From contig JACQMB010000145.1 in the NCBI GenBank assembly GCA_016203765.1, forward strand, positions 72,964-136,963: DNA of 64,000 nucleotides, in the 5' to 3' direction. Shown here piece after piece: positions 33,147 to 63,009 of the stretch (the first letter of the stretch is position 1; every line of letters begins with the position of its first letter). Source of the stretch: Deltaproteobacteria bacterium. Lineage in GTDB: Bacteria; UBA10199; SPLOWO2-01-44-7. Both the position numbers and the translations under genes were made by a program. The notes beneath the pieces are model-generated. The model was not told the origin of the DNA. It did no database searches and worked only from the letters and a program-made list of their open reading frames with translations.

Positions 33147-33206
33147 TTTAAAATGGCAAGTAACTGACCAGCCCCCGATATCGCGAAAGTGGCGATTCTC
33201 TTATAT

Positions 33207-33974: not shown

Positions 33975-33994
33975 TTGAAATCGGGGGCAATAGA

Positions 33995-34043: not shown

Positions 34044-34051
34044 TGATTTCG

Positions 34052-34097
34052 GGGGACACAATATCTATTTTTCGATGGAATTGTGTATTGTGTCCCC
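34052..34097. repeat. Variant REP-like hairpin (GGGGACACAATA stem)
   Basis: ggggacacaatatctatttttcgatggaattgtgtattgtgtcccc. 12-bp perfect inverted repeat. Confidence 0.75.
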
Positions 34098-41411: not shown

Positions 41412-42164
41412 ATGGGGACAAAGAAAAAAACAGTAATAGCCCTGACCGCCCTCCTTTTTTTGGCCCCCGCCTGGGCCGGCGAGAAAGAATCAAAAAAGAA
41501 AAGCGAAATTTGGCTTTCCAATCCCGACCAGTATGTCTTCGACAAAATCGAGTTTCAGGAATCTTTTTTCATGCCGAAGACCGACCTGGTCGCAGGGCCG
41601 CAGACGGTCTACGGCTGGTTTGACCGTCTCACGCACCATTTCAGCTATGAGCAGGGAAACAATGTCCTGCTCCATTTCGAAGGAAAACATTATTCCAAAA
41701 AGTCGGGGGGTGTTTTGCCCAATTACGCGGTCCAGCTGAACATAGAAATTCCCCGGGGCCGCTTTAAGTCATGGGAGCGGATTGAGGCAAAGGATTTGAA
41801 GGGCTATCTCTCCTGGATACACCCCGATTTTCCCAAGGGGGATCTTTACATTCCGATCGCGGGGGGGTACGTTCAAATTCAGAAGGTCAAGGAGGGAAAA
41901 CTTTACGGCCACCTGGATTTGAAATTCGGGCACGAAAAACTGAAAGAGCCGATTCACATTTATGGCGGGCGCATCCGGGCCGGACGGCTCACCCGCCAGC
42001 AATACGCCTCCCTGCAGGAGGGGATGACGGAATCTCTCTACAAGGAGGCGGAAGGACTGGAGGAGATGCCGGTGCCGAAAGATCTGTTGAAGCCGGCCCG
42101 GAAGCGTTCCCGGCGCGGAGGGCCCAAAAAAGAGGAAGAGGCCCGAGGCTCGACGGCTTGGTAA
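41412..42164 (+). CDS. Secreted hypothetical protein, first gene of the Tad-like operon
   Basis: Signal peptide MGTKKKTVIALTALLFLAPAWA. Divergent from RHS-1. Confidence 0.45.
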   Translation: MGTKKKTVIALTALLFLAPAWAGEKESKKKSEIWLSNPDQYVFDKIEFQESFFMPKTDLVAGPQTVYGWFDRLTHHFSYEQGNNVLLHFEGKHYSKKSGGVLPNYAVQLNIEIPRGRFKSWERIEAKDLKGYLSWIHPDFPKGDLYIPIAGGYVQIQKVKEGKLYGHLDLKFGHEKLKEPIHIYGGRIRAGRLTRQQYASLQEGMTESLYKEAEGLEEMPVPKDLLKPARKRSRRGGPKKEEEARGSTAW

Positions 42165-42202
42165 TAAAGTTTTTTAAAAAACAAAATAAAGGAGGTGTTA
42201 TT

Positions 42203-42406
42203 ATGAAGTTCAAAGGACTCAAAAGAGATCAGCGGGGTCAAACCGCCACCGAGTATATGCTGATTATCGCGGTGGTGGTGCTGGGAGCTGTCGCCGGAGC
42301 CTCGATATTAATTCCGGAGTTTCGGGATGGGGTGACGCAGCTCTCCGCAAAAATTAAGAATATTCTAACGAATACTTCTACCCCAACGGCTCCAATTAAT
42401 CCGTAA
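42203..42406 (+). CDS. flp: Flp-family type IVb pilin
   Basis: 67 aa. Flp motif RGQTATEYMLIIAVVVLGA. AAGGAGG RBS 9 nt upstream. Confidence 0.8.
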   Translation: MKFKGLKRDQRGQTATEYMLIIAVVVLGAVAGASILIPEFRDGVTQLSAKIKNILTNTSTPTAPINP

Positions 42407-42434
42407 GCCTAAGGCGAAAAGGAGTTTTTAATAA

Positions 42435-42893
42435 GTGAGGGACGAAACGGGTCAGACAGTTACGGAGTTCATGCTGGTCCTCCCTTTTTTTCTGATGGTG
42501 GTTTTTACCGTCATGCTGTTGGCCTTCGCGGTGATCAAGGCAGAAATGGTCACGTATGCCACATTTTGGGGGGCACGGGTGGCAGAGGTGGGAGGGGGCC
42601 GCGCGGCGGAGGTGGACGACGACTACCAACAGGCCGCCCAGGAGGTATTGCCCGGTATCGCGATGAGCAAACAAAAACTCTTTGGGGTGGTTTATCGCAT
42701 GAACGGCTCTTACCACTTCAACCCCATTTTGGGAAAGGCCGGCGGCGAAGACAGCCTCAATTCCCCGCTGGCCGACCTGAATAATTTGGAAACGTGGGTT
42801 CCGCTCCACCTTTTTCCGAAGTCCAGACCTTGCGTTATTTTGGGAAATGACAACCCGATCGGCCATGATCCCTGCTACCCAAAAGAATTTTAA
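42435..42893 (+). CDS. TadE-like pseudopilin
   Basis: N-terminus ETGQTVTEFMLVLPFFLMVVFTVMLLAF matches the TadE-like pattern. Confidence 0.6.
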   Translation: MRDETGQTVTEFMLVLPFFLMVVFTVMLLAFAVIKAEMVTYATFWGARVAEVGGGRAAEVDDDYQQAAQEVLPGIAMSKQKLFGVVYRMNGSYHFNPILGKAGGEDSLNSPLADLNNLETWVPLHLFPKSRPCVILGNDNPIGHDPCYPKEF

Positions 42894-43791
42894 CGAACGA
42901 GGCCAGTTGGCGGTGCTTCTGGCCATGATCTTCCCGATGCTGATCATGCTCTTGGCCTTTTTCGTGAATTTGAGCCTGTTGATTCACAAAAAGGTAAAAC
43001 TGCAGACCGCCGTCGATGTCGGGGTCTATTCCGGCGCGGCCTCCCTGGCCTACGACCTCAATCACATCGCCCAGCTCAACCGCGAAATCAATGAACTCTA
43101 TCAGGGTGATCCGTTCGCCAACAAGGAATGCAAGTGGAATTCCCTCTCCCTGAAAGAGTATCTCGAAAAAGACAGCCTCCACATGTACTATATCGAAAGA
43201 AAATACATGCAGTATCTCAACGAGTTTCAGTCTTGTCTCGACACGATCGACGACATCAACAAGGAAGCGGTGGACAAGGCCCTCGCCTTCGCGCAAGAGG
43301 CCGCGCGGTGGACCTACTACAACGGGAAACCGCCCGCCGAGGACCCGGCCCGCTTCGAATTTGACACCCTCTATAAAAAGAGCGGCGACCCCATGATGGA
43401 ATACCGGTTTTACGTCACCACCGAATCGGGAGAAAAAATCGTCTGTAAAAAGTACGACAAGGTCACCTGCTTCGATTTTTGGCACGATGAGGGAAAGGAG
43501 ACGTACACCAAAGACGTCAACCTTCCCATCGCCAAGACCAGCCCGGTTTTTTTCGTGGGGCAGGCCTCCGCCAATGTCGGTTTCGGCAATCTCTGGTCGG
43601 AGAATTTCCGGGTGGCCGGCCGGCATTATGACGAGACCGGGAGCGGCCAAATCCGCCTCAAGACCTACGCCGCCGGCCAGCCGTTCGGCGGCTCCGTGGC
43701 CGGTTTTGACGACAAATATCGGGCGACGCTGGTCCCGATCGAAAACACCAAAGTCAAGGTGGGGGATTATCCGAATGGTTTTTGGCACTGA
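42847..43791 (+). CDS. TadG-like Flp-pilus assembly protein
   Basis: N-terminus RGQLAVLLAMIFPMLIMLLAFFVNLSLL...AVDVGVYSGAASLA fits the TadG N-terminal domain. Confidence 0.55.
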   Translation: MTTRSAMIPATQKNFNERGQLAVLLAMIFPMLIMLLAFFVNLSLLIHKKVKLQTAVDVGVYSGAASLAYDLNHIAQLNREINELYQGDPFANKECKWNSLSLKEYLEKDSLHMYYIERKYMQYLNEFQSCLDTIDDINKEAVDKALAFAQEAARWTYYNGKPPAEDPARFEFDTLYKKSGDPMMEYRFYVTTESGEKIVCKKYDKVTCFDFWHDEGKETYTKDVNLPIAKTSPVFFVGQASANVGFGNLWSENFRVAGRHYDETGSGQIRLKTYAAGQPFGGSVAGFDDKYRATLVPIENTKVKVGDYPNGFWH

Positions 43792-44104
43792 CAAAAAAGA
43801 AAATCAAAAGGGATTTGCCTCCTTTGAGTTTGCCTGGGCGGCCTTTTTTCTGACCCTTTTGATCATTGTCTTTTTTCGGTTTTTCGATATGTTGAACAAA
43901 ACCACCCGCGCCCTGATTGTGGCGCGCCATCGGGCCTTTGAAACGGTGGGCCGGCCGGCGGGGGGCGCGGTCAGGCAGGGCGAGATACCGAGCAGTGTCC
44001 CGCTCGATTGTGAGGATGGCCGTTGCCGGTTCAGCGCGTCGCCGGTGAGCCCGTTTTTTCCGGAGGGCGGTGAGCAGAACGTTTTTTTGGTTTTAAATCC
44101 CTGA
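43775..44104 (+). CDS. Second TadE-like protein
   Basis: GFASFEFAWAAFFLTLLIIVFF N-terminal pattern. The ORF-track upstream extension overlaps tadG in another frame. Confidence 0.45.
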   Translation: MVFGTDKKENQKGFASFEFAWAAFFLTLLIIVFFRFFDMLNKTTRALIVARHRAFETVGRPAGGAVRQGEIPSSVPLDCEDGRCRFSASPVSPFFPEGGEQNVFLVLNP

Positions 44105-44114
44105 AAGGAAAACC

Positions 44115-44942
44115 ATGGACTTGAAAAAGAAATTGATCTTCTCCGGCGTGCTGGGAGTACTGGCCTTTATCGGCATTCTCTCCTACGTGCGCAACAAGGA
44201 GCAACATCTCCTCCAGCTTAGTGAAATGACCTATGTCCTGGCGGCCGCCAAGGATATTCTGGCCAACACCCAGATCGATGAGACGATGGTCGGCCGGATT
44301 CAGGTCCCCAGGAAATTTGTTCAACCGATGGCGTTAACCAGCCTGCGAGACGCGATCGGCCGGGTCGCCTTCGCCCCCATTCACGAAGGGGAGCAGATTT
44401 TGGGAACAAAACTGATCCAGCTGGGCTCGCAGACCGGCCTGGCCATGAAAATCCCGGTCGGGTTCCGGGCCGTCTCCATCGCGGTCAACGAGGTGACGGG
44501 GGTCGCCCACCTGATCCGCGCCGACGATTTTATCGATGTGTTGGGGAGTTTTGATTTCGGCGACCAGGCCCAGGCCAAAAAATATACCTACACCCTTTTT
44601 GAAAATATCCAGGTCCTGGCGGTGGAACAGAATATGGGCGAGGGTTTTACCACGGGCCTCCCCAAGGAGGAAAAGGGGGAGGGCGTGTTGAGCCGCCTGA
44701 TCGCCGAGCAGAAGGCGGGGGGGCAGGGGATGACGCTGACGCTGGCCATGTCCCCGGAGGATGCCCAGCGCCTCGTTCTGTCCCAGGAAACGGGATCGAT
44801 CTCCGTGGCCTTGCGCCCCCGCTTCGGTTCGGACAACATCTTGAAGCTGGAACCGGTCACGCCGTATGACCTGACCGGTTTGAAATCATTGATCCGGCAG
44901 TCCAAACAACCGACCTACATGGAATATAGAGGGGGGCGATAA
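44115..44942 (+). CDS. cpaB: Flp pilus assembly protein CpaB/RcpC
   Basis: N-terminal TM, a SAF-like segment, then a CpaB-type C-terminal region. Positioned before the secretin. Confidence 0.75.
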   Translation: MDLKKKLIFSGVLGVLAFIGILSYVRNKEQHLLQLSEMTYVLAAAKDILANTQIDETMVGRIQVPRKFVQPMALTSLRDAIGRVAFAPIHEGEQILGTKLIQLGSQTGLAMKIPVGFRAVSIAVNEVTGVAHLIRADDFIDVLGSFDFGDQAQAKKYTYTLFENIQVLAVEQNMGEGFTTGLPKEEKGEGVLSRLIAEQKAGGQGMTLTLAMSPEDAQRLVLSQETGSISVALRPRFGSDNILKLEPVTPYDLTGLKSLIRQSKQPTYMEYRGGR

Positions 44943-44944
44943 AC

Positions 44945-46357
44945 ATGAGCACAAGGAAAATCATCTGCACACCGCTGTTGATCCTGATGTTGTTGTTGCC
45001 GTGGAAGGGCCGGGGGCAGGTCGCCGACCAGCAGTTGGTGGTGGGCCGGGCCAAGACCCTGACCACCGCCTACGAAGTCGGCGACATCGCCATGAGCAAC
45101 GTGGAGATATGCTCTTTTGTGGTGAGGGAAAATCGGCGGGAGATTTATTTGAATCCGTTGACGGAGGGGAGTACCACCCTGACCATTTGGGACACGGAGG
45201 GTAAAAAAAGAGACAGCTCCCTGCTGACCGTGGTGGCCGTGGACGTCGATGCCGGCCTGAAAGCGGCCCAGGATTTCACCAGAAACATTCCGGGGGTGAG
45301 GGTCTATCTGGAGGGTTCGACGGTCGTCCTTGGCGGCGAGGTCCATACCCCGGCCCATCTCAAACAACTGGAGGGCTATGCCGAAACGCATCCCGAGGCC
45401 CGTTCGGAGGTGAAGCTCTCCAGCCAGGCCATGAACGTGATCGCCAAGCGGATCGAGGAGGCGATCAATACGCCGGGCATCCAGGTGCGGGCGGTGCGCG
45501 ACAAACTGATCATGGAGGGGTTGACCTACTCCGACGATATTTACAAAAAAATCGATACCATCGCCAAACTCTATGCCCCGGAAATCATCAACCTGGTGGA
45601 GGTCCGCGAGGCCAACCGCCGCCCCGGTTACGACAAAACCGTCCGCTTCGACATCTACTTTATGGAGGTCAAAAACTCGGCGCTCCGGGCGTTCGGAATC
45701 AACTGGGCCCCGGGGGCGGTCATCCAACAGCAGGCTGAAAAGGGTGGGGGGTCCGGCGGAGGCGGTTTCCTTGGGGGCGGGTTCAACGCCATGATCGGTT
45801 TTGTGATGAATCTGGTGCCGAAAATCCGGTGGATTCATCAGACCGGCCGCGGCAGGATTTTGGAAAAGCCCTCTTTTATCGTGAAGAGCGGCGAGCCGGT
45901 CAACTTCTTCAGCGGCACGCAGGTCCCCTATTACGGGGAACAGGGGGTTTCCTTCAAGGAGGTGGGGATTAAGGTGAATGCCGAGCCGATTGCCGCGGGC
46001 GACGAGATCGACTTGAAGGTCACGGTCGACGTCTCCACCCTCTCCTCGACGGTCGCCGAAGGGATCGACACCAACAACGTGACCACCTCGGTCTTCGTGA
46101 AGTCGGGCCAGGCGGTGGTGTTGGGGGGACTGGTCCGCAACGCCGATGTCAAGACCTATAACAAGGTCCCGAAGAATCTGGATACGACCTCGGCCATCTT
46201 CACCCTGTTTTTATCGAGGGATTTTCAGACCAATAAATCGCAGTTCTATGTCTTCCTCGTTCCCGAGGTGCTGGAACAGCCCCAGGCGGCCGAGATGAAG
46301 CTGAAACGCTGGCTTGAAATCAACAAGGAAATCGAGCTGTCGCGAAAATTTAAATGA
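44945..46357 (+). CDS. cpaC: Tad secretin CpaC/RcpA
   Basis: Signal peptide. C-terminal secretin blocks FFSGTQVPY, VFVKSGQAVVLGGLV and FVFLVPEVL. Confidence 0.8.
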   Translation: MSTRKIICTPLLILMLLLPWKGRGQVADQQLVVGRAKTLTTAYEVGDIAMSNVEICSFVVRENRREIYLNPLTEGSTTLTIWDTEGKKRDSSLLTVVAVDVDAGLKAAQDFTRNIPGVRVYLEGSTVVLGGEVHTPAHLKQLEGYAETHPEARSEVKLSSQAMNVIAKRIEEAINTPGIQVRAVRDKLIMEGLTYSDDIYKKIDTIAKLYAPEIINLVEVREANRRPGYDKTVRFDIYFMEVKNSALRAFGINWAPGAVIQQQAEKGGGSGGGGFLGGGFNAMIGFVMNLVPKIRWIHQTGRGRILEKPSFIVKSGEPVNFFSGTQVPYYGEQGVSFKEVGIKVNAEPIAAGDEIDLKVTVDVSTLSSTVAEGIDTNNVTTSVFVKSGQAVVLGGLVRNADVKTYNKVPKNLDTTSAIFTLFLSRDFQTNKSQFYVFLVPEVLEQPQAAEMKLKRWLEINKEIELSRKFK

Positions 46358-48498
46358 GTGCGGCGGTCATCAGCATTGTCGGCACCAAAGATGCGTGCGG
46401 GGCCTCGACCTTTGCCGCGAACCTGGGATTCCTCCTTCAAAAATTGTCCCACAAAAAAGTCCTCCTCTTTGATTACGATTTCAGCTATTGCGGCGACCTC
46501 CATCTTTCCCTCGACCAAAAGGAGTCCGCCTACGCCACCGATCTGATCGGCCTGGCCGGCAAGAAGGGGGCCCAAAAGATGCTGGAGGGTTTTATCCCCC
46601 GGCATCCGCGGGGCGTGCACCTCCTCCAGGCCTTCGATCCGCAGAAAAAGACGCACCGGTTTTCACCGGAGGATTTCGCCGGGGTCTTCTCCCTGCTGGC
46701 CGAGGCCTTCGATTATATTCTGGTGGATGGGGGGAGCAGTTGGACCCCCTATCATCTCCATCCCTTTTTGGGGTCCGGTCTTATCTTTTTGGTGGCCCAG
46801 CCGACGCGGGCTCTCCTCCGGGAGGCCTCGCATAAAACCGGCCGCCTCATGTCCGGTTTTATTCCGAAGAGCAAGCTGAACATCATTTTGAACAGGGTTG
46901 TGCAGACGGACGGGTTGAACACGCGGCAGATGGAGGAGCACTTTTCCGGATTAAACTGTTTTTATCTTCCGGACCGGCCCGGCAAAATGGAAGAGGCCTC
47001 CGGGGAACCGCTTTGCCTTCTGGACGTGCGCGACCCCTACACCCTGGGGATTGAGAAGATCGTCCGGGAGGCCCTCTTGAAGAAAAAACTGCCCTCCTTC
47101 CGTTTGGAGGAACATTCGGCGCCGGAATGGGGGGCCTTTGTCCCTTTCTGGGCGGCCTTCAACGGAGGGCCGACGGCCGCCGCGGCACCCGCGCGCGGCG
47201 CGGCTCAGGCCCCGCCGGTTGAAGAATGGGACCAATTGAAAGGCCAAATTTTAAAACAGTTGTTGAAGATGGTCGATTTTAAATCGATGGGGCTGGAACA
47301 GGCCAAGGATCAGAAAAACGAACAGGCCCTGCGGGAAAAAACCAGGGAGGCGATCCTGAAAATCCTCAACGCGATGGGGGAGGATGCCGTTGAACAAAGC
47401 AAAAAAAAACAACTGGTCGCGGAGGTTTTGGACGAGGCGCTCGGGCTGGGGCCGCTGGAGGTGCTCCTCGCCGATCCCAAACTCACCGAGATCATGATCA
47501 ACGGCAAGGACCATATCTACGTCGAAGAACGCGGAAAATTAAAGCGAACCCCGCTTCGTTTCAGTTCGGAGGATCAGCTCTCGGCGGTCATTGAAAGGAT
47601 CGTCGCCCCCATCGGCCGCCGGATCGATGAATCGACCCCCCTGGTCGACGCCCGGCTTCGGGACGGCTCCCGGGTGAATATCATCATTCCCCCCCTCTCT
47701 CTGGTCGGCCCGGTGGTGACCATCCGCCGTTTTTCCCAAACCCCGCTACAGGTGAGTGACCTGGTGGGCTTTGGCAGTCTCTCCGAGGGGATGGCCGAGT
47801 TTTTGCGCGCCGCCATTGAGGCGCGATTAAATATCGTGGTTTCCGGAGGAACCGGTTCGGGAAAAACAACCCTGCTCAACGTTTTGTCCTCTTTCATCGG
47901 GAACGATCAGCGGATTGTCACCATCGAGGACGCGGCCGAGTTGAGGCTCGGCCAGGAACACGTGATTTCTCTGGAATCGAGGCCCCCCAACATCGAGGGG
48001 AAGGGGGATATCCCGATCCGGACCCTGTTGAAGAACGCGCTCCGGATGCGGCCGGACCGGATCGTGATCGGGGAGTGCCGGGGAGGGGAGGCGCTGGATA
48101 TGCTCCAGGCGATGAACACCGGCCACGACGGCTCGCTCACCACCGTCCACGCCAACACGCCGCGCGATTGCGTCTCCCGTCTGGAAACCCTGGTGATGTA
48201 CGCGGGGGTGCAGCTCCCCTCCAAGGCCATCCGGGGCCAGATCGCCGCGGCCATCGACATGATTGTCCAGCTCAACCGGCTCTCCGACGGTAGCCGCAGG
48301 ATCACCAAGATCAGCGAGATCACCGGCATGGAGGGGGATGTGATCACCCTGCAGGATATCTTTGTCTTCAACCAGGAAAAAGTGGATGCCGACAAAAAGG
48401 TGATCGGCAAACACGCCCCGACCGGGGTGGTCCCCCGTTTTGTGGAAACGCTCCGCCAGCGGGGGATTGAGCTTTCCAGAAAGTATTTTCAGATATGA
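46354..48498 (+). CDS. Fused CpaE/TadZ-like (ParA/MinD-fold) plus CpaF/TadA secretion ATPase
   Basis: Residues 1-300 have the deviant ParA-like pattern GTKDACGAST...ILVDGG. Residues 330-714 carry the VirB11/TadA N-domain and Walker A VVSGGTGSGKTTLLN, plus Walker B and His box. Confidence 0.8.
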   Translation: MSAAVISIVGTKDACGASTFAANLGFLLQKLSHKKVLLFDYDFSYCGDLHLSLDQKESAYATDLIGLAGKKGAQKMLEGFIPRHPRGVHLLQAFDPQKKTHRFSPEDFAGVFSLLAEAFDYILVDGGSSWTPYHLHPFLGSGLIFLVAQPTRALLREASHKTGRLMSGFIPKSKLNIILNRVVQTDGLNTRQMEEHFSGLNCFYLPDRPGKMEEASGEPLCLLDVRDPYTLGIEKIVREALLKKKLPSFRLEEHSAPEWGAFVPFWAAFNGGPTAAAAPARGAAQAPPVEEWDQLKGQILKQLLKMVDFKSMGLEQAKDQKNEQALREKTREAILKILNAMGEDAVEQSKKKQLVAEVLDEALGLGPLEVLLADPKLTEIMINGKDHIYVEERGKLKRTPLRFSSEDQLSAVIERIVAPIGRRIDESTPLVDARLRDGSRVNIIIPPLSLVGPVVTIRRFSQTPLQVSDLVGFGSLSEGMAEFLRAAIEARLNIVVSGGTGSGKTTLLNVLSSFIGNDQRIVTIEDAAELRLGQEHVISLESRPPNIEGKGDIPIRTLLKNALRMRPDRIVIGECRGGEALDMLQAMNTGHDGSLTTVHANTPRDCVSRLETLVMYAGVQLPSKAIRGQIAAAIDMIVQLNRLSDGSRRITKISEITGMEGDVITLQDIFVFNQEKVDADKKVIGKHAPTGVVPRFVETLRQRGIELSRKYFQI

Positions 48499-49361: not shown

Positions 49362-49363
49362 CG

Positions 49364-50218: not shown

Positions 50219-50223
50219 CACCG

Positions 50224-51141: not shown

Positions 51142-51148
51142 GAGGAAA

Positions 51149-54210: not shown

Positions 54211-55757
54211 AAAAAATTTTGATTCTCCTCTGCGCGGGTCTTTTTCCCTGGAGCGGTCCCTGGGCCAAGCCGGCCGTCGAGCCGATCTATATCCCGCTCG
54301 ATCATGTCCGCGTCCCCCATCCGGGCGCCGGCTGGAATTACCGGGTCGGCTCCGACCAACTGCGCATCGAATTCAAGGAAGAGGCCTCCCTCCGCAACGG
54401 GGCCTACCCGAGCGTTGTCCTCCTCTCGCGCCGGATCGTGGATGCCTCCCCCTACGCCGCGGCCTGGCAGCGCGCGGAACTCAAGGGTCTCCCGAAACGC
54501 TACCAGGTTGAAGCCGGCGACGCGGCGGCGGCGGATGCCTTTCAGATCAACTATTCCTTCACCCAAAACCTGATGCGCGTGGAGGGGGCCCGGTTCTACA
54601 AGCCGCAGGGCCACTGGCTTTACCTGTGGGAGTGTCAGCGGGAACAGGGCGGGGGCGTTGATTTGAAAAAATGGTGCCGGGACCTGTTCGCGAACATCCA
54701 ATGGTCGGAGGATATCGCGATCGCGTCGCCCGAACAGGTGGACGATTTGGATGCACTGGTCGCGAAGATGTCCTTTGCCCCCCCTCAATTGCAAAAACAG
54801 GAAACGGATCTGATCGCGGGCCTGCAAAAAACCCCGCTGACCTTCAACGACCTGATGGCCTACGGGGCCTTTCTGATGGTCCGCTCGCTCCTCTATCCTC
54901 CCCCCGAAGGACAGCAGGGGGACCTGATCGAGAATTTCAAAAAGATGTCGCTGATTTTCAGAAAAGATCCGCGCTACCGGACGGTGAGCGAATGGTTTGC
55001 GGTGCACGCCGAGGTCCTGGGAGGCCTGTTTAATTTGAAAAAGGCCAAAGAGGTGGCGCAGTCGAACGAGCGGCCTCCCTTCTGGCTGTTGAGCTTGTGG
55101 GTGGAGCCCCTCTCCCCGGGGATCGCCGCGAGCATGATCGCCCGCGAGGATTTTGACAAGGGCCTGGAACACTACGTGCAGGGGACGCTCCTTCATAAGA
55201 CCGGTCATGGGGACGAGGCCCTCACTCCTTTGAACAAGTCGGCCGGCCAATTTGGGGCGCTGGCTTGGGAACAGATGGCGCGCATCCATCTTGAAAAACA
55301 AGACCGCGATAAGGCGAAAATTTACGTTGAAAAAATCCTGAAAAAAAGTCCGGACCATGTCGGCGCGAAACTCCTTCTGGCCCGCATTTTGGAGGCGACC
55401 GAGGAGCCCCCCCAACTGGAGGAGGCCCAGAAGATCTACGCTGACTTGACCGCAAAGAAAGACCTCTCCGGGGACGAAAAACTGAATATCTTTTTGCAAA
55501 AGGCCAAAAACAGCATCCATCCCGAAATCCAGACGGAGTATTATGAAAAGGTTTTGGAGATTGACCCGAATCATCTGGACGCCATCTACGCGCTGGGCCG
55601 CCTCTATCTTTTGGAATATAATGACAAAAAGAAGGGGGTCCAATATTTTGAAAAATTCATTGCGAAGGCCCCCAAGGAAGACGAACGCGTGCAGGAATTG
55701 ACCGCCATGGTGCGCGATCTCCGCCATGAGATCTATTCGAGTCAAATTCCGGAATAG
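54195..55757 (+). CDS. Secreted TPR-repeat protein
   Basis: Signal peptide MSVPVKKILILLCAGLFPWSGPWA and C-terminal TPR repeats. Confidence 0.45.
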   Translation: MSVPVKKILILLCAGLFPWSGPWAKPAVEPIYIPLDHVRVPHPGAGWNYRVGSDQLRIEFKEEASLRNGAYPSVVLLSRRIVDASPYAAAWQRAELKGLPKRYQVEAGDAAAADAFQINYSFTQNLMRVEGARFYKPQGHWLYLWECQREQGGGVDLKKWCRDLFANIQWSEDIAIASPEQVDDLDALVAKMSFAPPQLQKQETDLIAGLQKTPLTFNDLMAYGAFLMVRSLLYPPPEGQQGDLIENFKKMSLIFRKDPRYRTVSEWFAVHAEVLGGLFNLKKAKEVAQSNERPPFWLLSLWVEPLSPGIAASMIAREDFDKGLEHYVQGTLLHKTGHGDEALTPLNKSAGQFGALAWEQMARIHLEKQDRDKAKIYVEKILKKSPDHVGAKLLLARILEATEEPPQLEEAQKIYADLTAKKDLSGDEKLNIFLQKAKNSIHPEIQTEYYEKVLEIDPNHLDAIYALGRLYLLEYNDKKKGVQYFEKFIAKAPKEDERVQELTAMVRDLRHEIYSSQIPE

Positions 55758-55761
55758 GACG

Positions 55762-56109
55762 ATGGGGGTTGCCCTGGCCGAGGGGCGGCTGGCCAGGCTT
55801 TTGGGAATGAGTTTTCGCGGCGCGTGGAAGAAAGAAGGGATGCTGTTTGTTTTTAAAAAACAGGGCCGCTATCCTTTTTGGATGTGGGGGATGCGCCTGC
55901 CGATCGATCTGGTCTGGTTAAAGAAACGGACGGTGGTCGGTTTTGAGGAAAATCTCCAGCCCCCGGCCTCCCGTTGGCACCTGCTCTTTCCCTTTCTGCT
56001 GAGGCGCTACCGTCCGCCGGAGGCCGTGGACGGCGTGCTGGAAGTTCCGGCCGGGTTTTGCCGGCAGAACCGGCTGAAAAGGGGGGAGGTACTCGATGCG
56101 CAAAATTAA
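55762..56109 (+). CDS. DUF192 (COG1430) family protein
   Basis: GMLFVF...YPFWMWGMRLPIDLVWL matches the DUF192 core. Confidence 0.5.
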   Translation: MGVALAEGRLARLLGMSFRGAWKKEGMLFVFKKQGRYPFWMWGMRLPIDLVWLKKRTVVGFEENLQPPASRWHLLFPFLLRRYRPPEAVDGVLEVPAGFCRQNRLKRGEVLDAQN

Positions 56110-56662
56110 CAACAGACAAGGACAAGCCGCCGTGGGTTATGCCCTGGCCCTGGCCGTCGTGGCGGTCGGCATGGGTGTGGTTTTAAACAGCCCCGAGCTG
56201 AGGCAGGGGATTGCCGAATTTTACACCAACGCCGCCACCCGCGTTATTCATGGCGGAAAATTCGGCGAATCCGATTTGACCGCCGCCAAGGATGAAACAT
56301 GGGGATCAGCGCCTTCGGATGAAACGGCCGGAACGCCGACTGAAAGCGGAACTCCCTCCGGCGGGGACGGCACGGGTGCCGGAGATGGTTCCTCAGGCGG
56401 TTCTTCGGATTCCGGGCAGACCACCCAGACAGGGGGCGGCGGCTTGGGGACCGGGGGGGTGAATACCCCGGGAACGGTTCCGGGCGAGACGACTGCTTCC
56501 ACGGGTCCCTCGACGCAACCCACCGCGCCAACGGGCTCCGTCCCGCCGGAACCCGGCGCGCCGAAAGGTCCCTTTGCCGATCAAAATATGTCTTCCGCCC
56601 CGGTTGAAAATCCGCAGGAGCCGGCGCAATGCGAAGCGGCGGCGGATAGCGCCGGAATATGA
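56096..56662 (+). CDS. Pilin-like protein with a non-canonical Flp-type N-terminus and a Gly/Ser/Thr-rich tail
   Basis: NNRQGQAAVGYALALAVVAVG resembles the Flp G/xxxxEY motif with E replaced by G. The C-terminal ~120 aa is G/S/T/P-rich. Stop overlaps the RHS-2 start. Confidence 0.45.
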   Translation: MRKINNRQGQAAVGYALALAVVAVGMGVVLNSPELRQGIAEFYTNAATRVIHGGKFGESDLTAAKDETWGSAPSDETAGTPTESGTPSGGDGTGAGDGSSGGSSDSGQTTQTGGGGLGTGGVNTPGTVPGETTASTGPSTQPTAPTGSVPPEPGAPKGPFADQNMSSAPVENPQEPAQCEAAADSAGI

Positions 56663-59600
56663 TGAAAAAACAAGTGAGCGCAAAACTTGTTTCATCGGGG
56701 GCCGTGATTTTAGGCTTGGCATTTTTTGTTTTTGTTTCCGGTCCGTTCGTCTCATCCATCCAAAGCCAGGATATCGATCAAAGCATTCAATCCCTGCGGT
56801 CGTTTGACTACCAGAAGGCGACCGACCTGGGAAAACTGGAGGACTACGCCAAGAAAGAGGCGCGGAAGTTCATGGGCCAGGCGGAGGTCAAGGAGAAGAT
56901 GGAGAGTTGGGTGAATGAGGCCAAGGAGGCTTGGACGGACGCGCACGGCAAGATGTATCAATTGCCGGCTCGGGGGGCCTCTGTTCCCTGGGAGTCGAGG
57001 CCGGAATACCGCGACTATTTGAAAAAAGAATTGACCAACCAGATGCAGGTGAAATTTCCGGGCATGATGGATCAGTTCATGAAGAACAACGTCTTGCAAG
57101 GGGCGCAGGTCGCGGCGGAGGAGGCGGCGAAGGTGGAGAAGATGATCGGGGAGGTGACCGACCAGACCCTGAAGAACGTGGAGGGGATCGTGGGGGGAGC
57201 GATCGACCATTGGGGAGAGACCATACAAAGCGGCGGGGGGATGTTGACGGACAAGTTATTGGAGCCCGCCGCCTTTTTGGGCGAGATGCAGGAGAAGCTG
57301 GCCGGCAAGATGGGGGAGGCGACCAAGCTGGGGATGAAGGAATTTATCGACAAAGAGATGATCGGTCTGCTGGGGGAGAATTTTGAGCAGAAGCTGACCG
57401 ATCTGACCCAAGGGGCGGCGGAGACGTTGGAGGGGATCAAAGACAAGCTGGCGGACATCAAGCACATCGATTTAACCTCGATCGAGCAAAACCTGCAGGG
57501 GATATTGGACGCCTCCGGTCTTCCGAATCCTTTTAATTTATCGGCCGGCGATTATTTGGGACATCAGTTTCACAAGCTGAAGGGACTGCCCCCGGCGACC
57601 CTTCCGGACATCGAGATTCCCTCCCCGGCGATGGCGGGGATTTGGGCCTCTTCGGCGGCGAAGCATTTTGCCAAGGCCTTCGTGAAGTTTGATGAGCTCC
57701 GTGCCGGGATCAACCTGATCAAGCATTTGATTTGGCAGATGGAGAAGAAGCCTCGGTCGTTCATGATGTTTGGGGGTGATTTTGCGGGGCGCGGTATCTT
57801 TGGCGCGCACGGGGCGGCGGGGCTGACGCCGGAGCAGAAGGCCAAGCTGGAGGCGCTGATCGCGGAGGCGGAGGGCCTGCCGGAAGACATGGATCCGACG
57901 AAGATGAAGGAGAAGCTGGAGGGATTCAGGGATATTTTGGGCGAGTTCAAGGTGGAGATGGACAAGCAGATTTTGGCGATGGGGAAGCCCAACGAGGGTT
58001 ACGATCAACCCGATTTGGAGGGTGAGGAGAAGGAAAAAGATTGCGAGAAGGACCCGGAGCGGGAGGAGTGTCAATACGAGGAGGTAAAAGTAGCCAGCAA
58101 GGAGGATCAGACCGGGGCGACGGAGGAATCCCCTGAGGCCGACAGCGATTCGCCTTTGGACCCTGTTATTTTGTACAGCGGGGAGTACGCGTTAAAAGCG
58201 ACTGATTTGAAATTAAGGGGCCGGGGCCTCGATTTTGAACTGACCCGCCACTACCGCAACCAATGGGAGCGGATGGGGCCGCTGGGATACAACTGGACGC
58301 ACAACTACGATGAGAAACTGATTCTCGATTCCCAAAAGCGGGACATCGTGCATCAATCGCCGGAAGGCCAGCGTTATTGGTATCGCTGGGATGAGAAAAA
58401 ACAGCGCTTTGATTCTCCGCGCGGCTTTTTCACGAAGCTGACCCCAACCGAAGGGGGATTTGTTCTAAAGCAATCCGAAGGGCTTAACTATTATTTCAAC
58501 GGCGAAGGGCGGATGACCAGGATTGAAGACGCTCATCAGAACGCCCTGCGATTTGAATACGGCCTCGCGGGCGAGACAATGGTTTTGGTGCGCGTGATAG
58601 ACACGCTGGGGCGCGCGGTGGAGTACCGTTACAATGATGAGGGTTTGATTGCCTCGGTGGTGGATCCCTTTGGAAGGGAAGTGGTTTATACCCATGACGC
58701 TCAAAAAGACCTTGTGTCTGTCCGCTCGCCGGTGAGCGATCAATATCCGCAGGGGAAGACAACCCGCTACGCTTACAGCGGCGGGCTGTTGGAGCCGAGG
58801 CTCAATCACAATCTCAACATGATCATGGATCCGAAGGGGCAGATTTATTTAAAAAACGTCTACGGGGCCGAGGGATTGGAAAAGGACAAGATCACGGCGC
58901 AGTTGTTCGGGGGAAAAGAGAGCCTTCAGATGCGGGTGGAATACGAGGCGTTAAAGGCCAGCAAGCCGACGGTCAACACGGCGTTAAGCCGGACGACGGT
59001 CTGGGACCGCAAGGGGGTTCAACATAGCTATGAGCACAACGCCTGGGGCCTGCGTTTGAGTGAGCGGGCGGGAGAAAATCCGGCCGAGCAGTTTGAATAT
59101 AACCAGGACGGGCTTTTAACCAAACACGTTTATCCCGGCGGCAAGGAGGAGATTTTTACCTACGAAGGGAATCATCTCAAAGAATATCAACTGAAAGGCG
59201 AGGATGGAAAATCCCTGCTGGGCCGTTATGGCTATGACAAGCAATGGAATAAGGTTGCCTTTGAAGAAAGGATCTCCGGCACCGAGGTTCGCCGGAAAGA
59301 ATACGCGTACAATGACGCGGGGCTTTTGAGCGAGGCGCGTGAGGGGGGTGTCACCACCCGGTATGAGTACGATCCCTACGGCCGGATTGTTAAAAAGATC
59401 GAAGGGGAAAAGACGCGGACCTACGCCTATGACAAGGCCAACCCCATTGTTATTACGGACAGCACGGAGGGGGGAAGCCGCAGTATCACCATCGGTTACG
59501 ATCTTTACGGCAACATTCAGGCGGTGACCGATCCTGCGGGGAACCGGACCCGCTATTGGCTGAATGCCAACAACCTGGTGGTGCAGAAGGAAGATGCCTT

Positions 59601-62600
59601 GGGCCACAAGACCCATTACGCTTACGATGCCAATGACAATTTGGCCGAGGTGACCCGCGACGTGGCCGGAGCGCTGAACATCTCCGATCTCGGTTATCAA
59701 TTAAGAGAGCGCTACAACTACGATGTTTTGGATAACTTGGTCAAAAAAGAGTCGCAGGTCAACCGGGAGAAGTGGGTGGCGGAGGAGTATGCCTACGATC
59801 TCAATGAAAACCTGACGCGGATTAAGGGGATCGACGGGACCGCGAGGGAATTCGTCTACGACCCCTTCAACCGCGTGACGGAGGAGAAGGCCGGAGGCGA
59901 GACGCAGAGAAAGCTCGAATACGACGCGGACGGTTTTTTGATTGCCGAGAGCGACGCCAAGGGAAACCGGAAGGAATATCAAAGGGATTCGCTTTCACGG
60001 ATTGCCAAGTTTATCGATCCGTTGGGGAGTCAGCTGGCCCTGAATTACACCGGCCTGGGCGAGATTGCCGGGTATCAGTTTAAAGACGCCAAGGCCGCCA
60101 TTTTAAAGGAGGTCCGGTTTGCCTACGACGCCCTGGGGCGCAAAGTCTCCGAGGAAGAGAGGCTGGTCGGCTCGGCGGAAGGGACGCGGGATTGGGTGAA
60201 AAAGGAGTTTGTTTACGCGGGGCCCTTCTTAAAGGAAGTTAGAGATTCGCTGGGGCTGGTGCAGAAGTTTGGCTACAATTCCTTCGGCGAGGTCGCCGCC
60301 ATTGAAGATGCCTCCGGCAATGCCATTCAGCTTAGCTATGATTCGCGGGGTCTGATGACTCAAAGACAAATCACCAAAGCAACGCGTTCCTTAACCGAGC
60401 GCTATCAATACGATGCCTTGGGCCAGCTCATCAGCCAAACCGATGCCAAGGGGGCGAGTTTAAAAAGGGTTTATAACAGCTTGGGCCAGTTGATTAAAGA
60501 GATCGACCCTCTCAATCAGGAGACCCTCTATTATTATGACGGGATCGGAAGACTCCTAAAGGAAGTGCAGGGCGAAAGAGAGCGAAAACTTCTGTGGAAT
60601 GCCGACCAAATGCTGGAGGCTTTTATCGACGGCCAGGGCAATAAGGTCCAATACACTTACGACAACCAGGGGCGCAAAAAGGCCGAAGTGGGAACCGACG
60701 GCGTTCGGAGGGAATACGGCTACGACGCGGCGGGCAACCTGGCCTCTCTGACCGCCGGCGCCGCAAAGTATGACTACACCTATGACGCCCTCAATCGTTT
60801 GATCGCGAGGGCCAGCGGTGATTACAAACAAACTTACGGCTATGATCCGTTGGGGAGGCTGGTCGCCAGCACGGATCTCAATGACCCTGCCGATCCGGCA
60901 GACGACACCACCGCCCGGTTTGAATACGACCCTCTTGGCAATCTGGTCAAGGAAACTCAGGGTGAGCGGGTGTTAAGCAAGCATTTCAACATCCGGGGCC
61001 AAAAAACCGCCCTCTTCTACCCTTCGGGCGAAGAAGTAACGCAAAGTTTTGATCCCGCGGGCTGGCTGGAAAATATCCAGGTCAACGGCCAAACGATCAG
61101 CCAATATCAATACGCCCTGTTGGGTTTTACCCAAAAAGAAACCTTGGGCAACGGCATTACCAAAAACTTGAATTATGACAACTTAATGCGGCTGGTGGAG
61201 GAGAACTACCAAAAAGAAAAGAATATTCTCTCCAAACTGGCTTATGCCTACGATCTCAAAGGGAGAGTGATTTTAAAAGAGGATGTAAAGCAAAAGACCT
61301 GGGAAGTCTTTGGCTACAATAATTTGGATCAACTGGAAAAAGTAGGGAAGACCGAAGGTCCCAGAGGGAACAAAAATTCATGGGATCAGGCCTGGGCGCT
61401 GGCCGCAACCAAACGCGAATACACCTACGCCGCCGAGGGTCAGTGGCGAAGCATTATTGAGAAAGACGGAAAGAAGAAAGAAGAAGTCACAAACATCGCC
61501 TCCGGCGCGGGGTTTCAATACGCCTCCTTCAACGGCGAGTCCCTGGCCTATGATGAGCGCGGCAATCTCGCCTCCCTTAACAATAAACTTTCCTTTGAAT
61601 ACGATCCCTTCAACCGCTTAACCCAAGTCAAAGACAAGGCCACCAATAAGCTCGTCGCCAAATACACCTACGACGCCCACAATCGCAGAGTCAAAAAACA
61701 GATTTTCTTTGAAAACGTAAGGATGGGGCCGTTCGCGGCGAATGAGGCGGCGGTTTCGGATGAGGCCGCTGACGCGGGCCCCTACATCCGTTCCATCGAG
61801 TTCGTCTATGACAACTGGAACCTCATCGAAGAATACGAAAACGGCCAGCTCGGCAACGTCTACATCCACGGCAAATCGCTCGATGAACCCGTCGCGTTAA
61901 AGAGCAACGGCAAGATCTTCTATTACCACAGAGACCGCTTGGGATCGGTGACGGGCTTGAGCGATGAGCACGGCCGGATGGCCCAGCGCTATGAGTACAC
62001 AGAGTACGGCGCGCTGACCGCGCGGGGGCCCGAACCGCAACCAAAACTCCGCTACGCCGCCGCTAAGGCCTCCGATCTCGCCCCTATCGCCCCCATCGAC
62101 AACCCCCTCACCTACACCGGCCAATATTTCGACGCCGAAACAGGGCTCTACTATTATAAGAATCGCTACTACGCCCCCCAACTCGGCCAATTCACCTCGA
62201 AGGATCCTTTGGGCATGGTGGATGGGCCGAATGTGTATGCGTATGTAAATAGCGACCCGTTAAACTGGGTGGATCCGACGGGGACGTTTATTGGGTATCA
62301 TAGTAGTGGTGAAAAGGTAGGCACTCTAGCTAATGCTAGAGCAGAGATTGATCAGATTGTATGGGCATATGTTGAACAGCGTAGAATTGAAGAAAATAAA
62401 TGTCGAACGGGCGATTATAACGTAAAAGAAAATAAGAACATAAACTATAGTGAGTTGTTAGAAATTCTTACGACTCATTTTGATACAAGCAATAATCGCT
62501 TTTTTTACACATCAAAGGGTGGTTTTATGGATGTGAAGCATGTAGTTGCGGCAACTCAGAAAGCCTATGAATTGCCATGGTACATACCAGACTCTGCAGT

Positions 62601-63009
62601 ATTGGTTGGAGGTATGGAAGTTGAAAGAATTCAATCTAGAGCTGGTGATAAGAGTGCGTGGGGGGCTGAAGATTTAGTGTCAAATAAAGCAGGTGTGAGG
62701 TTTGAAAATAAATTGCCTGATAATTTGGCTGAGTTAGGAGCAACCTTTGAAAATTTTTTCGACAAAAAATATGGTGGACAGGGCGCAACCCCATCACAAT
62801 CTGATATAAGGAAAATGAATCAAGTCCTCAACTTTGGGTACAGACCATTATTATCTCCAGATGACAAAAGAATACTTACAACTGACGATGGAATAAAATA
62901 TCTATCTAGTGGGGACACATTGATTGATATAATCAATTTAAATGAATATAGGGAAGGTCAAAAAAACCCACAACCTATGCATCCTCCTTTTGAATCGTTT
63001 AATTTATAA
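56659..63009 (+). CDS. RHS/YD-repeat polymorphic toxin 2 (paralog of RHS-1 with a different C-terminal toxin domain)
   Basis: Same architecture as RHS-1, with a near-identical YD shell and core. After DPLGMVDGPNVYAYVNSDPLNWVD it diverges into an AT-rich ~240-aa tip. Confidence 0.9.
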   Translation: MMKKQVSAKLVSSGAVILGLAFFVFVSGPFVSSIQSQDIDQSIQSLRSFDYQKATDLGKLEDYAKKEARKFMGQAEVKEKMESWVNEAKEAWTDAHGKMYQLPARGASVPWESRPEYRDYLKKELTNQMQVKFPGMMDQFMKNNVLQGAQVAAEEAAKVEKMIGEVTDQTLKNVEGIVGGAIDHWGETIQSGGGMLTDKLLEPAAFLGEMQEKLAGKMGEATKLGMKEFIDKEMIGLLGENFEQKLTDLTQGAAETLEGIKDKLADIKHIDLTSIEQNLQGILDASGLPNPFNLSAGDYLGHQFHKLKGLPPATLPDIEIPSPAMAGIWASSAAKHFAKAFVKFDELRAGINLIKHLIWQMEKKPRSFMMFGGDFAGRGIFGAHGAAGLTPEQKAKLEALIAEAEGLPEDMDPTKMKEKLEGFRDILGEFKVEMDKQILAMGKPNEGYDQPDLEGEEKEKDCEKDPEREECQYEEVKVASKEDQTGATEESPEADSDSPLDPVILYSGEYALKATDLKLRGRGLDFELTRHYRNQWERMGPLGYNWTHNYDEKLILDSQKRDIVHQSPEGQRYWYRWDEKKQRFDSPRGFFTKLTPTEGGFVLKQSEGLNYYFNGEGRMTRIEDAHQNALRFEYGLAGETMVLVRVIDTLGRAVEYRYNDEGLIASVVDPFGREVVYTHDAQKDLVSVRSPVSDQYPQGKTTRYAYSGGLLEPRLNHNLNMIMDPKGQIYLKNVYGAEGLEKDKITAQLFGGKESLQMRVEYEALKASKPTVNTALSRTTVWDRKGVQHSYEHNAWGLRLSERAGENPAEQFEYNQDGLLTKHVYPGGKEEIFTYEGNHLKEYQLKGEDGKSLLGRYGYDKQWNKVAFEERISGTEVRRKEYAYNDAGLLSEAREGGVTTRYEYDPYGRIVKKIEGEKTRTYAYDKANPIVITDSTEGGSRSITIGYDLYGNIQAVTDPAGNRTRYWLNANNLVVQKEDALGHKTHYAYDANDNLAEVTRDVAGALNISDLGYQLRERYNYDVLDNLVKKESQVNREKWVAEEYAYDLNENLTRIKGIDGTAREFVYDPFNRVTEEKAGGETQRKLEYDADGFLIAESDAKGNRKEYQRDSLSRIAKFIDPLGSQLALNYTGLGEIAGYQFKDAKAAILKEVRFAYDALGRKVSEEERLVGSAEGTRDWVKKEFVYAGPFLKEVRDSLGLVQKFGYNSFGEVAAIEDASGNAIQLSYDSRGLMTQRQITKATRSLTERYQYDALGQLISQTDAKGASLKRVYNSLGQLIKEIDPLNQETLYYYDGIGRLLKEVQGERERKLLWNADQMLEAFIDGQGNKVQYTYDNQGRKKAEVGTDGVRREYGYDAAGNLASLTAGAAKYDYTYDALNRLIARASGDYKQTYGYDPLGRLVASTDLNDPADPADDTTARFEYDPLGNLVKETQGERVLSKHFNIRGQKTALFYPSGEEVTQSFDPAGWLENIQVNGQTISQYQYALLGFTQKETLGNGITKNLNYDNLMRLVEENYQKEKNILSKLAYAYDLKGRVILKEDVKQKTWEVFGYNNLDQLEKVGKTEGPRGNKNSWDQAWALAATKREYTYAAEGQWRSIIEKDGKKKEEVTNIASGAGFQYASFNGESLAYDERGNLASLNNKLSFEYDPFNRLTQVKDKATNKLVAKYTYDAHNRRVKKQIFFENVRMGPFAANEAAVSDEAADAGPYIRSIEFVYDNWNLIEEYENGQLGNVYIHGKSLDEPVALKSNGKIFYYHRDRLGSVTGLSDEHGRMAQRYEYTEYGALTARGPEPQPKLRYAAAKASDLAPIAPIDNPLTYTGQYFDAETGLYYYKNRYYAPQLGQFTSKDPLGMVDGPNVYAYVNSDPLNWVDPTGTFIGYHSSGEKVGTLANARAEIDQIVWAYVEQRRIEENKCRTGDYNVKENKNINYSELLEILTTHFDTSNNRFFYTSKGGFMDVKHVVAATQKAYELPWYIPDSAVLVGGMEVERIQSRAGDKSAWGAEDLVSNKAGVRFENKLPDNLAELGATFENFFDKKYGGQGATPSQSDIRKMNQVLNFGYRPLLSPDDKRILTTDDGIKYLSSGDTLIDIINLNEYREGQKNPQPMHPPFESFNL

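Follow-up and report, generated by a model that had tools for sequence, protein, structure and literature searches.

Is a Tad/Flp pilus operon that is flanked on both sides by genes for giant RHS proteins a machine for the delivery of toxins, or a pilus locus beside which RHS genes have merely settled? This question is raised by a 64,000-nucleotide (nt) stretch of contig JACQMB010000145.1 from the "Deltaproteobacteria bacterium" metagenome-assembled genome GCA_016203765.1 (henceforth "the window"; all coordinates are window positions), in which two RHS genes, RHS-1 and RHS-2, point outward from the opposite ends of a Tad-type operon. The original prediction for this DNA described a complete Tad operon translationally coupled to an RHS toxin, forming a delivery system of a type not described before. 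According to our analyses, the locus appears to combine two known kinds of elements, a Kil-like Tad machine and RHS polymorphic toxins, and we propose, with a probability of about 45%, that they constitute a functional module, in which the RHS toxins would be the dedicated cargo or partners of a Kil/Bdellovibrio-like Tad (type IVc pilus) machine. We regard this as a strong comparative lead from the genomics of uncultivated organisms.

The layout of the operon agrees with the predicted run of overlapping or abutting genes on a single strand: the segment 41412-63365 comprises 19 open reading frames (ORFs), all on the + strand, with junctions ranging from -32 to +38 nt and with overlaps at nine of the 18. 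As anticipated, RHS-2 is the last large cistron. The junctions that lead to it measure -32 nt (from the last TPR gene to the DUF192 gene), -14 nt (from DUF192 to a pilin-like gene, here called pilin2) and -4 nt (from pilin2 to RHS-2, an in-frame ATGA at 56659-56662), and the next ORF begins 5 nt after RHS-2. A terminator separating RHS-2 from the upstream genes was named in the original prediction as an observation that would speak against it, and a hairpin scan of the + strand between 55100 and 57700 found no terminator-like structure; overall, such hairpins are not enriched in the sequence (40 observed versus 32 +/- 6.5 in shuffles). A strong promoter-like site (TTGACA-16-AATAAT, 11 of 12 consensus matches, 41334-41361, + strand) lies ahead of the first operon gene. 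The system also reaches leftward beyond the limits originally drawn, taking in RHS-1 and the small ORFs downstream of it. Its main components are listed below, with lengths in amino acids (aa) and Pfam scores in bits; the starts of the minor pilins were taken partly from the annotation of a sibling assembly (L004, GCA_016206415.1).

34546-34833, - strand: 95-aa ORF, candidate immunity protein of RHS-1 by position, 1 nt after the RHS-1 stop; no Pfam match
34835-41080, - strand: RHS-1, 2081 aa, divergent from the Tad operon; RHS_repeat 234 bits, DUF6531 49 bits
41081-41411: AT-rich divergent intergenic region, with the promoter-like site facing the Tad operon
41412-42164, + strand: "lipo", secreted 250-aa protein, the conserved first gene of the operon; no Pfam match
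42203-42406, + strand: Flp-type major pilin, 67 aa, motif RG/QTATEYMLI; Flp_Fap 21.6 bits, below the cut-off of 32.2
42435-42893, + strand: TadE-like minor pilin (pseudopilin); TadE 22.8 bits (cut-off 22.9)
42865-43791, + strand: TadG-like minor pilin (pseudopilin); Tad 29.4 bits (cut-off 22.3)
43775-44104, + strand: TadE/F-like 109-aa protein, with a pilin-like N-terminus judged by eye only
44115-44942, + strand: RcpC/CpaB; RcpC 85.4 bits
44945-46357, + strand: RcpA/CpaC-type secretin; Secretin 77.5 bits, T2SS-T3SS_pil_N 37.8 bits
46354-48498, + strand: ParA/TadZ-like domain and TadA/CpaF ATPase fused in one protein of 714 aa; CbiA 27 bits (cut-off 25.4), T2SSE 211 bits
48495-49361, + strand: TadB platform protein; T2SSF (68.5 and 65.9 bits for the TadB/TadC pair)
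49364-50218, + strand: subtype-specific secreted protein, 284 aa; no family
50224-51141, + strand: TadC platform protein; T2SSF
51149-55757, + strand: four subtype-specific genes, for a 385-aa membrane protein, TPR-like proteins of 181 and 453 aa, and a 520-aa TPR protein
55726-56109, + strand: DUF192 protein, encoded by the last gene but one of the operon and conserved in this place; DUF192 68.5 bits
56096-56662, + strand: pilin2, 188 aa, motif RQG/QAAVGY, recognised from sequence; no Pfam family
56659-63009, + strand: RHS-2, 2116 aa; RHS_repeat 252 bits, DUF6531 58 bits
56659-56757, + strand: Sec-type signal peptide of RHS-2
56758-58170, + strand: helical N-terminal domain of RHS-2
58171-62274, + strand: DUF6531 and RHS shell of RHS-2
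62275-63009, + strand: variable C-terminal toxin of RHS-2
63015-63365, + strand: 116-aa ORF, candidate immunity protein of RHS-2 by position, 5 nt after it; no Pfam family

To judge from these matches, the machine is of the Tad/Flp type by every feature tested except a prepilin peptidase encoded in the locus. The Pfam families proposed for the verification of the prediction (Flp_Fap, if weakly, TadE, T2SSE, T2SSF, Secretin and RHS_repeat) were all found, and the product of 42203-42406 carries the G/XXXXEY processing motif of Flp pilins (MKFKGLKRDQRG/QTATEYMLI). On the other hand, no Pfam match to a peptidase A24 or prepilin peptidase (TadV/CpaA) was obtained among the window ORFs scanned, so that calling the operon "complete" was too strong; the peptidase may be encoded elsewhere in the genome. 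The 714-aa TadZ-TadA protein has full-length homologs at 49-60% identity, and fused homologs are common, which supports the long reading frame over the NCBI annotation of the sibling assembly, where CpaF has only 409 aa and approximately 300 N-terminal, TadZ-like codons are left unannotated (46354-47277 in the window, 9089-10001 in L004). The closest named homologs of TadC and of the ATPase are found in Bdellovibrionota, Myxococcota and "Deltaproteobacteria" metagenome-assembled genomes; together with the fused TadZ-TadA they point tentatively to the "Kil-like" group of Bdellovibrio and Myxococcus, a placement judged from similarity. The TPR proteins span 52307-55757; the 520-aa one matches TPR_19 with 44 bits, while the other three members of the four-gene set have weak or no matches. 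Pfam and PDB sequence searches gave no identity for "lipo" and the subtype-specific proteins. It may be added that at about window position 45766, within the secretin gene, the sibling assembly is longer by 9 nt, which yields a protein of 473 aa instead of 470 aa; the site lies in or near the Gly-rich stretch GGGSGGGGFLGGG, and it is the only length difference in the 15.4 kb compared.

The RHS proteins present a consistent picture. Like RHS-2, RHS-1 consists of a Sec-type signal peptide, a helical N-terminal domain of approximately 470 aa, DUF6531, the RHS shell and a C-terminal toxin (34835-35446). The two proteins are 77% identical over 1880 aa, but their similarity is very uneven: 62% in the N-terminal domain, 72% rising to 92% along the shell, and 19% after the motif DPLNWxD. 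The sequence DPLGMVDG occurs in the autoproteolysis region of both (aa 1849 in RHS-2, aa 1856 in RHS-1), and the end of the shell aligns with the solved Rhs/TccC cores 8qjc, 7q97 and 6h6e (E = 3e-6); the shell is apparently closed by a C-terminal DPxG autoproteolysis region, at which cleavage is predicted. The GC content at third codon positions (GC3) is 0.68-0.76 in the RHS-2 shell, 0.31 in the toxin region and 0.36 in the 116-aa ORF that follows. This combined drop of identity and of GC3 is the usual signature of the replacement of C-terminal toxins and their immunity genes. Pfam and PDB sequence searches assigned neither a family or fold to the two toxin domains nor an identity to the candidate immunity proteins. 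Pfam searches of the RHS proteins and of those window ORFs that were scanned revealed neither PAAR nor any other type VI secretion system (T6SS) family, and no VgrG- or TcA-binding region was seen in the RHS proteins, which instead possess the Sec signal and the family-specific helical N-terminal domain. As far as their architecture can be predicted, they have the structural hallmarks of RHS polymorphic toxins and lack those of T6SS-type Rhs proteins. The signal peptide and the second, inverted paralog of the original prediction can both be recognised, and its immunity gene has a candidate by position. In one of the related loci discussed below (L007), an ORF for a 168-aa HEAT-repeat protein (16510-17016), a plausible immunity protein, overlaps the RHS stop, which supports the toxin/immunity interpretation of the RHS genes in this family.

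The pairing of this Tad subtype with RHS genes is not confined to a single genome. Seven other metagenomic lineages possess the same subtype gene by gene, and together with the window they make eight. Their ATPases, compared with that of the window, and their borders are as follows.

L001: ATPase 54% identical; RHS on neither side
L002: ATPase 56% identical; RHS on neither side
L005: ATPase 49% identical; co-directional RHS 31 nt after pilin2
L006: ATPase 49% identical; one RHS upstream and divergent, another downstream and convergent
L007: ATPase 60% identical; RHS upstream and divergent
L090: partial locus; downstream a 735-aa FHA/HopA1-like protein and no RHS
L151: fragment without the ATPase; RHS next to a "lipo" homolog (E = 1e-16), in divergent orientation

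L003 (ATPase 60% identical) is truncated at both ends, and its borders are uninformative. L004, at 99.94% identity to the window, comes from one and the same population and was dropped as an independent case. Within the operon the resemblance is close: "lipo" homologs of 28-37% identity head it in L001, L002, L005, L006, L007 and L151, the major Flp pilin is 45-70% identical in the relatives, and both the four-gene set of 51149-55757, in identical order, and the DUF192 gene in its slot recur in L001, L002, L005, L006 and L090. Outside the operon, the loci, whose GC content ranges from 37 to 61%, and from 37 to 52% in the RHS-bearing L005, L006, L007 and L151, have no other flanking genes in common. 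Nonetheless, an RHS gene stands at the operon border in five of the eight lineages, the window included, and in four of these five it adjoins the same first gene, "lipo". No RHS was found in a background control of 140 further loci with TadC, which total 1.75 Mb and belong mostly to Bdellovibrionota and Myxococcota. A scan of GTDB with the TadC alignment yielded 80 loci of at most 37% identity, mostly lone TadC genes, none of them the syntenic subtype and none with RHS; the same scan of JGI metagenomes yielded one informative locus, L090. The 735-aa protein encoded after pilin2 in the latter (7967-10174) shows weak similarity to Yop-YscD_cpl (FHA-like, E = 5e-4) and to HopA1 (E = 0.02), and may represent another kind of cargo, or else a regulator.

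These comparisons change the emphasis of the original prediction. The pairing itself holds well beyond the window, as it recurs in the independent lineages L005, L006, L007 and L151. Translational coupling, to which it gave prominence, turns out to be a detail of one lineage: the commoner arrangement is an RHS gene that, like RHS-1, is divergent from the first Tad gene and must have its own promoter, and a co-directional downstream RHS is found only in the window and, among the relatives, in L005 alone, where the gap is 31 nt. Comparison of the loci indicates that what is conserved is the adjacency of RHS together with a dedicated N-terminal domain, and not translational coupling. The occurrence of such Tad clusters without RHS, and of RHS genes elsewhere, had been named as evidence that would count against the prediction, and about half of this is what we see, since L001 and L002 are free of RHS, L090 has none downstream, and some proteins with the same N-terminal domain are encoded away from Tad loci. 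L001 and L002 were considered as a refutation, but this interpretation was dropped once further relatives showed RHS adjacency. Because the RHS-bearing lineages (ATPase identity 60% and 49%) bracket the RHS-free ones (56% and 54%), the distribution suggests an old association with later losses.

The N-terminal domain is a rarity. An exhaustive HMMER search of 1.84 billion protein representatives (E <= 1e-3) returned only 17 cluster representatives, and the members that we looked up are all metagenomic singletons or near-singletons. Among them are RHS proteins from L006, L007 and L151, and in RHS proteins identity within the domain is down to 27-38%. Of five independent domain-bearing RHS proteins with a readable context, four are encoded beside this Tad subtype. 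The same domain heads two CHAP peptidoglycan hydrolases, P0128 and P0131, neither of which is encoded beside Tad genes. The presence of one rare module on different cargos (RHS and CHAP) would fit a trafficking domain of a Tad-dependent effector family, because the trafficking domains of polymorphic toxins likewise join one targeting module to different cargos. The CHAP locus L009 and locus L006, which has both Tad and RHS, were obtained from one sample, and a tetranucleotide correlation of r = 0.74 suggests that the two belong to one genome; the corresponding value for L003 and L152, the latter containing a domain-bearing RHS, is r = 0.21, which does not settle a common origin. No Pfam family matches the domain. 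Its AlphaFold model is all-helical, with long helices (predicted local distance difference test score 73, predicted template modelling score 0.43), and weakly resembles apolipoprotein-like or pore-forming helical bundles; a Foldseek search of the model against the PDB found no match at E <= 0.001. A word-indexed protein search with the N-terminal 504 aa of RHS found nothing at E <= 1e-5, and pattern scans found nothing in GTDB genomes or, with the alignment of the two paralogs, in JGI metagenomes. Two further candidates were rejected: P0138 (cluster representative P0137, E = 7e-4), an RHS protein not encoded near Tad genes, was set outside the family, and a 485-aa protein encoded upstream of the L001 operon gave an hhalign probability of 0.1 as a hidden member.

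The other unusual element of the operon is pilin2. What the original prediction called a pilin-like protein deserves the name in its conserved, Flp-like head of approximately 55 aa (56096-56260); the remainder, up to the start of RHS-2, is a tail of approximately 133 aa, rich in Gly, Ser, Thr and Pro, which has no counterpart in any of the five relatives where pilin2 could be read. There, pilin2 has 60-75 aa, closes the operon and mostly ends near "...PGK". The tail lacks the GC3 bias of its surroundings, but as it would be free of stop codons by chance in only approximately 3% of shuffles, it is probably translated, though peculiar to the window genome. At mature position 5, pilin2 of the window (56096-56260) and of L005 (16794-17021) has Gly (G/QAAVGY) where the others have acidic or polar residues; C-terminal extensions of 133 aa and 17 aa, respectively, are present in these two, while pilin2 of the other four loci read (QTSTDY, QTTVEY, QASVSY or QASISY) has no such extension. 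In L006, the DUF192 and pilin2 sequences share one 170-aa frame (18842-19354), either as a fusion or with an unannotated internal start, and the convergent RHS ends 4 nt beyond it.

How might such a module work? The RHS proteins would be exported to the periplasm via Sec, as their signal peptides imply. There, the Tad apparatus could recognise the helical N-terminal domain through the tip of minor pilins, through pilin2 acting as an "adapter", or through the secretin. The ATPase-driven pilus would then present the RHS protein or expel it through the outer membrane onto the contacted cell, in a manner similar to a type II secretion system (T2SS), whereupon, by analogy with other RHS proteins, the shell would release its variable C-terminal toxin and the products of the small downstream ORFs would protect the producer. 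We infer every one of these steps; the observations beneath them are the gene content, the structure of the operon, the recurrence of RHS, the shared domain and the replacement of toxins between the paralogs. The more specific proposition, that a Kil/Bdellovibrio-type Tad machine takes Sec-delivered RHS and CHAP effectors to contacted cells by means of the ~470-aa domain, and that this constitutes an unrecognised export route, is put forward tentatively, as an idea with the odds somewhat against it.

The functional module is favoured by the continuity of the operon into RHS-2, with gaps of no more than 38 nt, an ATGA junction and no terminator-like site, by the recurrence of adjacent RHS in this Tad subtype against its absence from the control loci, by the rare domain that RHS proteins have in common with CHAP hydrolases, and by the fact that both loci with a co-directional downstream RHS carry the G/QAAVGY variant of pilin2. 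Several observations weigh against it. The sample is small, with eight lineages, all metagenomic, and the correlation with the pilin2 variant rests on two loci; L001 and L002 lack RHS on both sides and L090 lacks it downstream; the domain-bearing CHAP proteins of L008 and L009 and the domain-bearing RHS of L152 are not encoded next to Tad genes; and the model of the domain is of moderate confidence and provides no mechanistic clue. Moreover, the folded RHS shell is large, and its passage through an RcpA-type secretin is doubtful. Finally, the upstream RHS copies, including RHS-1, are divergent, so that coupling within the operon is not the conserved feature. The last point fits co-regulation better than co-assembly, and with it the unlikely alternative that the link is functional but indirect and the Tad machine does not secrete RHS. 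The pilus could provide only the contact between cells while RHS reaches the surface in another way, perhaps by means of its amphipathic and helical N-terminal domain, whose predicted long helices and weak likeness to apolipoproteins and pore-forming bundles would suit this role; in Myxococcus, large Rhs proteins with signal peptides work independently of a T6SS and are thought to be located on the surface (PMC10433427). Alternatively, RHS could be a YD-repeat partner, periplasmic or exposed on the surface, whose part is to regulate or anchor the pilus, the role suggested for Bd0109 of Bdellovibrio, which is Sec-exported, encoded beside tad genes and binds Bd0108, and mutations in whose locus alter piliation (PMC3818213). 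However, the RHS proteins of the window are full-size toxins with an autoproteolysis motif, a replaced low-GC C-terminus and adjacent small ORFs, while Bd0109 has only ~65 kDa, and the occurrence of the same domain on CHAP hydrolases argues for a role in export or targeting and not in the regulation of pili.

It is also conceivable, if quite unlikely, that there is no functional link, and that mobile, recombinogenic RHS elements came together or stayed at this locus fortuitously, as hitch-hikers or because they favour the AT-rich borders of operons, RHS-2 being co-transcribed only as a result of an insertion after the last Tad gene and a fusion with the open tail of pilin2. Such a tail, unique to the window genome and without the codon bias of its surroundings, is what would be expected of a sequence made by insertion; L001 and L002 are closer to the window by their ATPases than L005 and L006 and yet have no RHS, as is the case downstream in L090; the placement of RHS varies between upstream divergent, downstream co-directional and downstream convergent; some domain-bearing proteins are located elsewhere; and the climb of paralog identity towards the 3' end of the shell (from 72% to 92%) is a sign of ongoing recombination. 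Nevertheless, a chance gathering does not readily explain why RHS is adjacent in five of eight lineages in spite of the divergence of the domain to 27-38% identity and the loss of other flanking synteny, why it adjoins the same first gene four times, why it is absent from the 140 control loci, or why this small family alone has the N-terminal domain. An assembly artefact, i.e. a chimeric contig in which an RHS region was joined with a Tad locus that has no relation to it, is hardly credible. The genome was assembled from a metagenome, and the RHS copies are inverted and alike over long stretches (as much as 1302 nt with 88% identity), a kind of repeat that can mislead assemblers, but the separately deposited assembly GCA_016206415.1 has the same RHS-1/Tad junction (99.94% identity over 15.4 kb), similar junctions occur in independent contigs from other samples, and the junction with RHS-2 is an in-frame ATGA overlap, not a break.

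Downstream of RHS-1, beyond its candidate immunity gene, lie further small ORFs.

34065-34505, - strand: 146-aa ORF; no Pfam match
31658-34061, - strand: ORFs for three proteins of 241, 202 and ~255-284 aa, whose N-termini resemble signal peptides; no Pfam family

The stretch 31658-34061 has a GC content of 0.415-0.463, compared with ~0.55 nearby, and its ORFs may be accessory or orphan immunity-type genes, whose membership in the system is uncertain. ORFs in this low-GC stretch are bracketed by a 55-nt element that contains a palindrome (GGACACGATACTTA...TAAGTATCGTGTCC) and is present twice, at 32437-32491 and 33996-34050, with 96% identity between the copies; it may be a small mobile element or one similar to repetitive extragenic palindromes. 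Farther away, a 1914-aa bacterial alpha-2-macroglobulin (MG2, bMG3/5/6/10 and A2M domains) is encoded directly upstream of a 679-aa PBP1C-type transglycosylase/transpeptidase (23388-31452, - strand), and the two look like the known A2M-PbpC pair of periplasmic defence. The window also encodes a 684-aa protein with DUF4215 repeats (390-2444) and a 571-aa protein (19635-21350) whose sole match is to sigma-70 region 2 near the C-terminus, an odd architecture for a sigma factor.

Tad-like machines are needed both for contact-dependent killing by Myxococcus and for the invasion of prey by Bdellovibrio, and the lineage described here supplies a concrete candidate for two questions at once, namely the nature of the Kil toxin and the T6SS-free passage of signal-peptide Rhs proteins across the outer membrane. 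If the proposed route is true, the N-terminal domain would mark out the first family of effectors for Tad-like killing machines, and it would answer how signal-peptide Rhs proteins leave diderm cells. Provided that the link is real, Tad-dependent delivery would join the trafficking modes of polymorphic toxins; otherwise, the locus is still a clear example of RHS elements nesting around a pilus operon. Three handles are offered for further study: the N-terminal domain, the adapter-like pilin2 and the conserved first gene.

How does the locus compare with the systems already known? With the Rhs effectors of the T6SS and the TcB/TcC cocoons of Tc toxins, the window RHS proteins share the shell, the DPxG autoproteolysis motif and the encapsulated variable C-terminal toxin, but they have a Sec signal and a helical domain in place of PAAR, VgrG or a TcA-binding region. 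The T2SS provides a mechanistic analogy, raised also by the authors of the Kil studies, in that a short filament of type IV-like build drives Sec-exported substrates out through a secretin; the component families differ, however, and no RHS protein is known among the T2SS substrates. Classical Tad/Flp systems (tad of Aggregatibacter, cpa of Caulobacter) have the same core gene set and the G/XXXXEY motif of Flp. They build adhesive pili, have separate TadZ and TadA proteins and encode a prepilin peptidase in the locus, and they are not known to be linked to toxins. No Tad-linked family of polymorphic toxins was reported in the literature that we searched.

Closer to the window are systems of predatory bacteria and their relatives. 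Rhs4 and Rhs5, which act in T6SS-independent kin discrimination in Myxococcus, are likewise large Rhs proteins of a diderm with signal peptides, and their route across the outer membrane is not known, but they are encoded on Mx-alpha prophages and have not been reported beside Tad genes (PMC10433427). The tad/hit locus of Bdellovibrio bacteriovorus (bd0108-bd0121) has an atypical TadA-TadZ fusion ATPase (bioRxiv 10.64898/2026.07.08.737194), as does the window, and encodes the Sec-exported YD-repeat/RHS-family protein Bd0109 beside its tad genes; homologues of Bd0109 were noted by the authors to be associated with Tad pili in other bacteria (PMC3818213). The assertion that nothing of this type had been described thus has to be softened. 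Bd0109, however, is a protein of ~65 kDa, apparently essential, without a described toxin/immunity pair, and is read as a regulator of the pilus (PMC3818213); by this description it stands apart from the ~2100-aa RHS proteins of the window, which are complete toxins with replaceable C-termini.

The nearest functional counterpart is the Kil system of Myxococcus xanthus, a Tad-like apparatus for the contact-dependent killing of prey, whose toxin "remains to be discovered", which by the account of its authors may or may not secrete anything, and for which a T2SS-like role is considered possible (PMC8460266, PMC12075869). The original prediction held that Kil is not known to be linked to RHS, and indeed the word "Rhs" occurs 0 times in either of these two papers. 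Kil and the window share a Tad-type secretin, ATPase, platform proteins, Flp pilin, minor pilins and accessory TPR proteins, and the "adapter" pilins KilK and KilO (PMC12075869) are resembled by the small, ~60-aa Flp-like proteins. Unlike the window, with its single 15-kb operon flanked by RHS and with no T3SS genes, the Kil genes are distributed in split clusters and work together with a type III secretion system (T3SS) that lacks a needle. The Kil authors expected the effectors to be cell-wall hydrolases (PMC8460266), and the CHAP hydrolases that carry the ~470-aa domain match this expected type.

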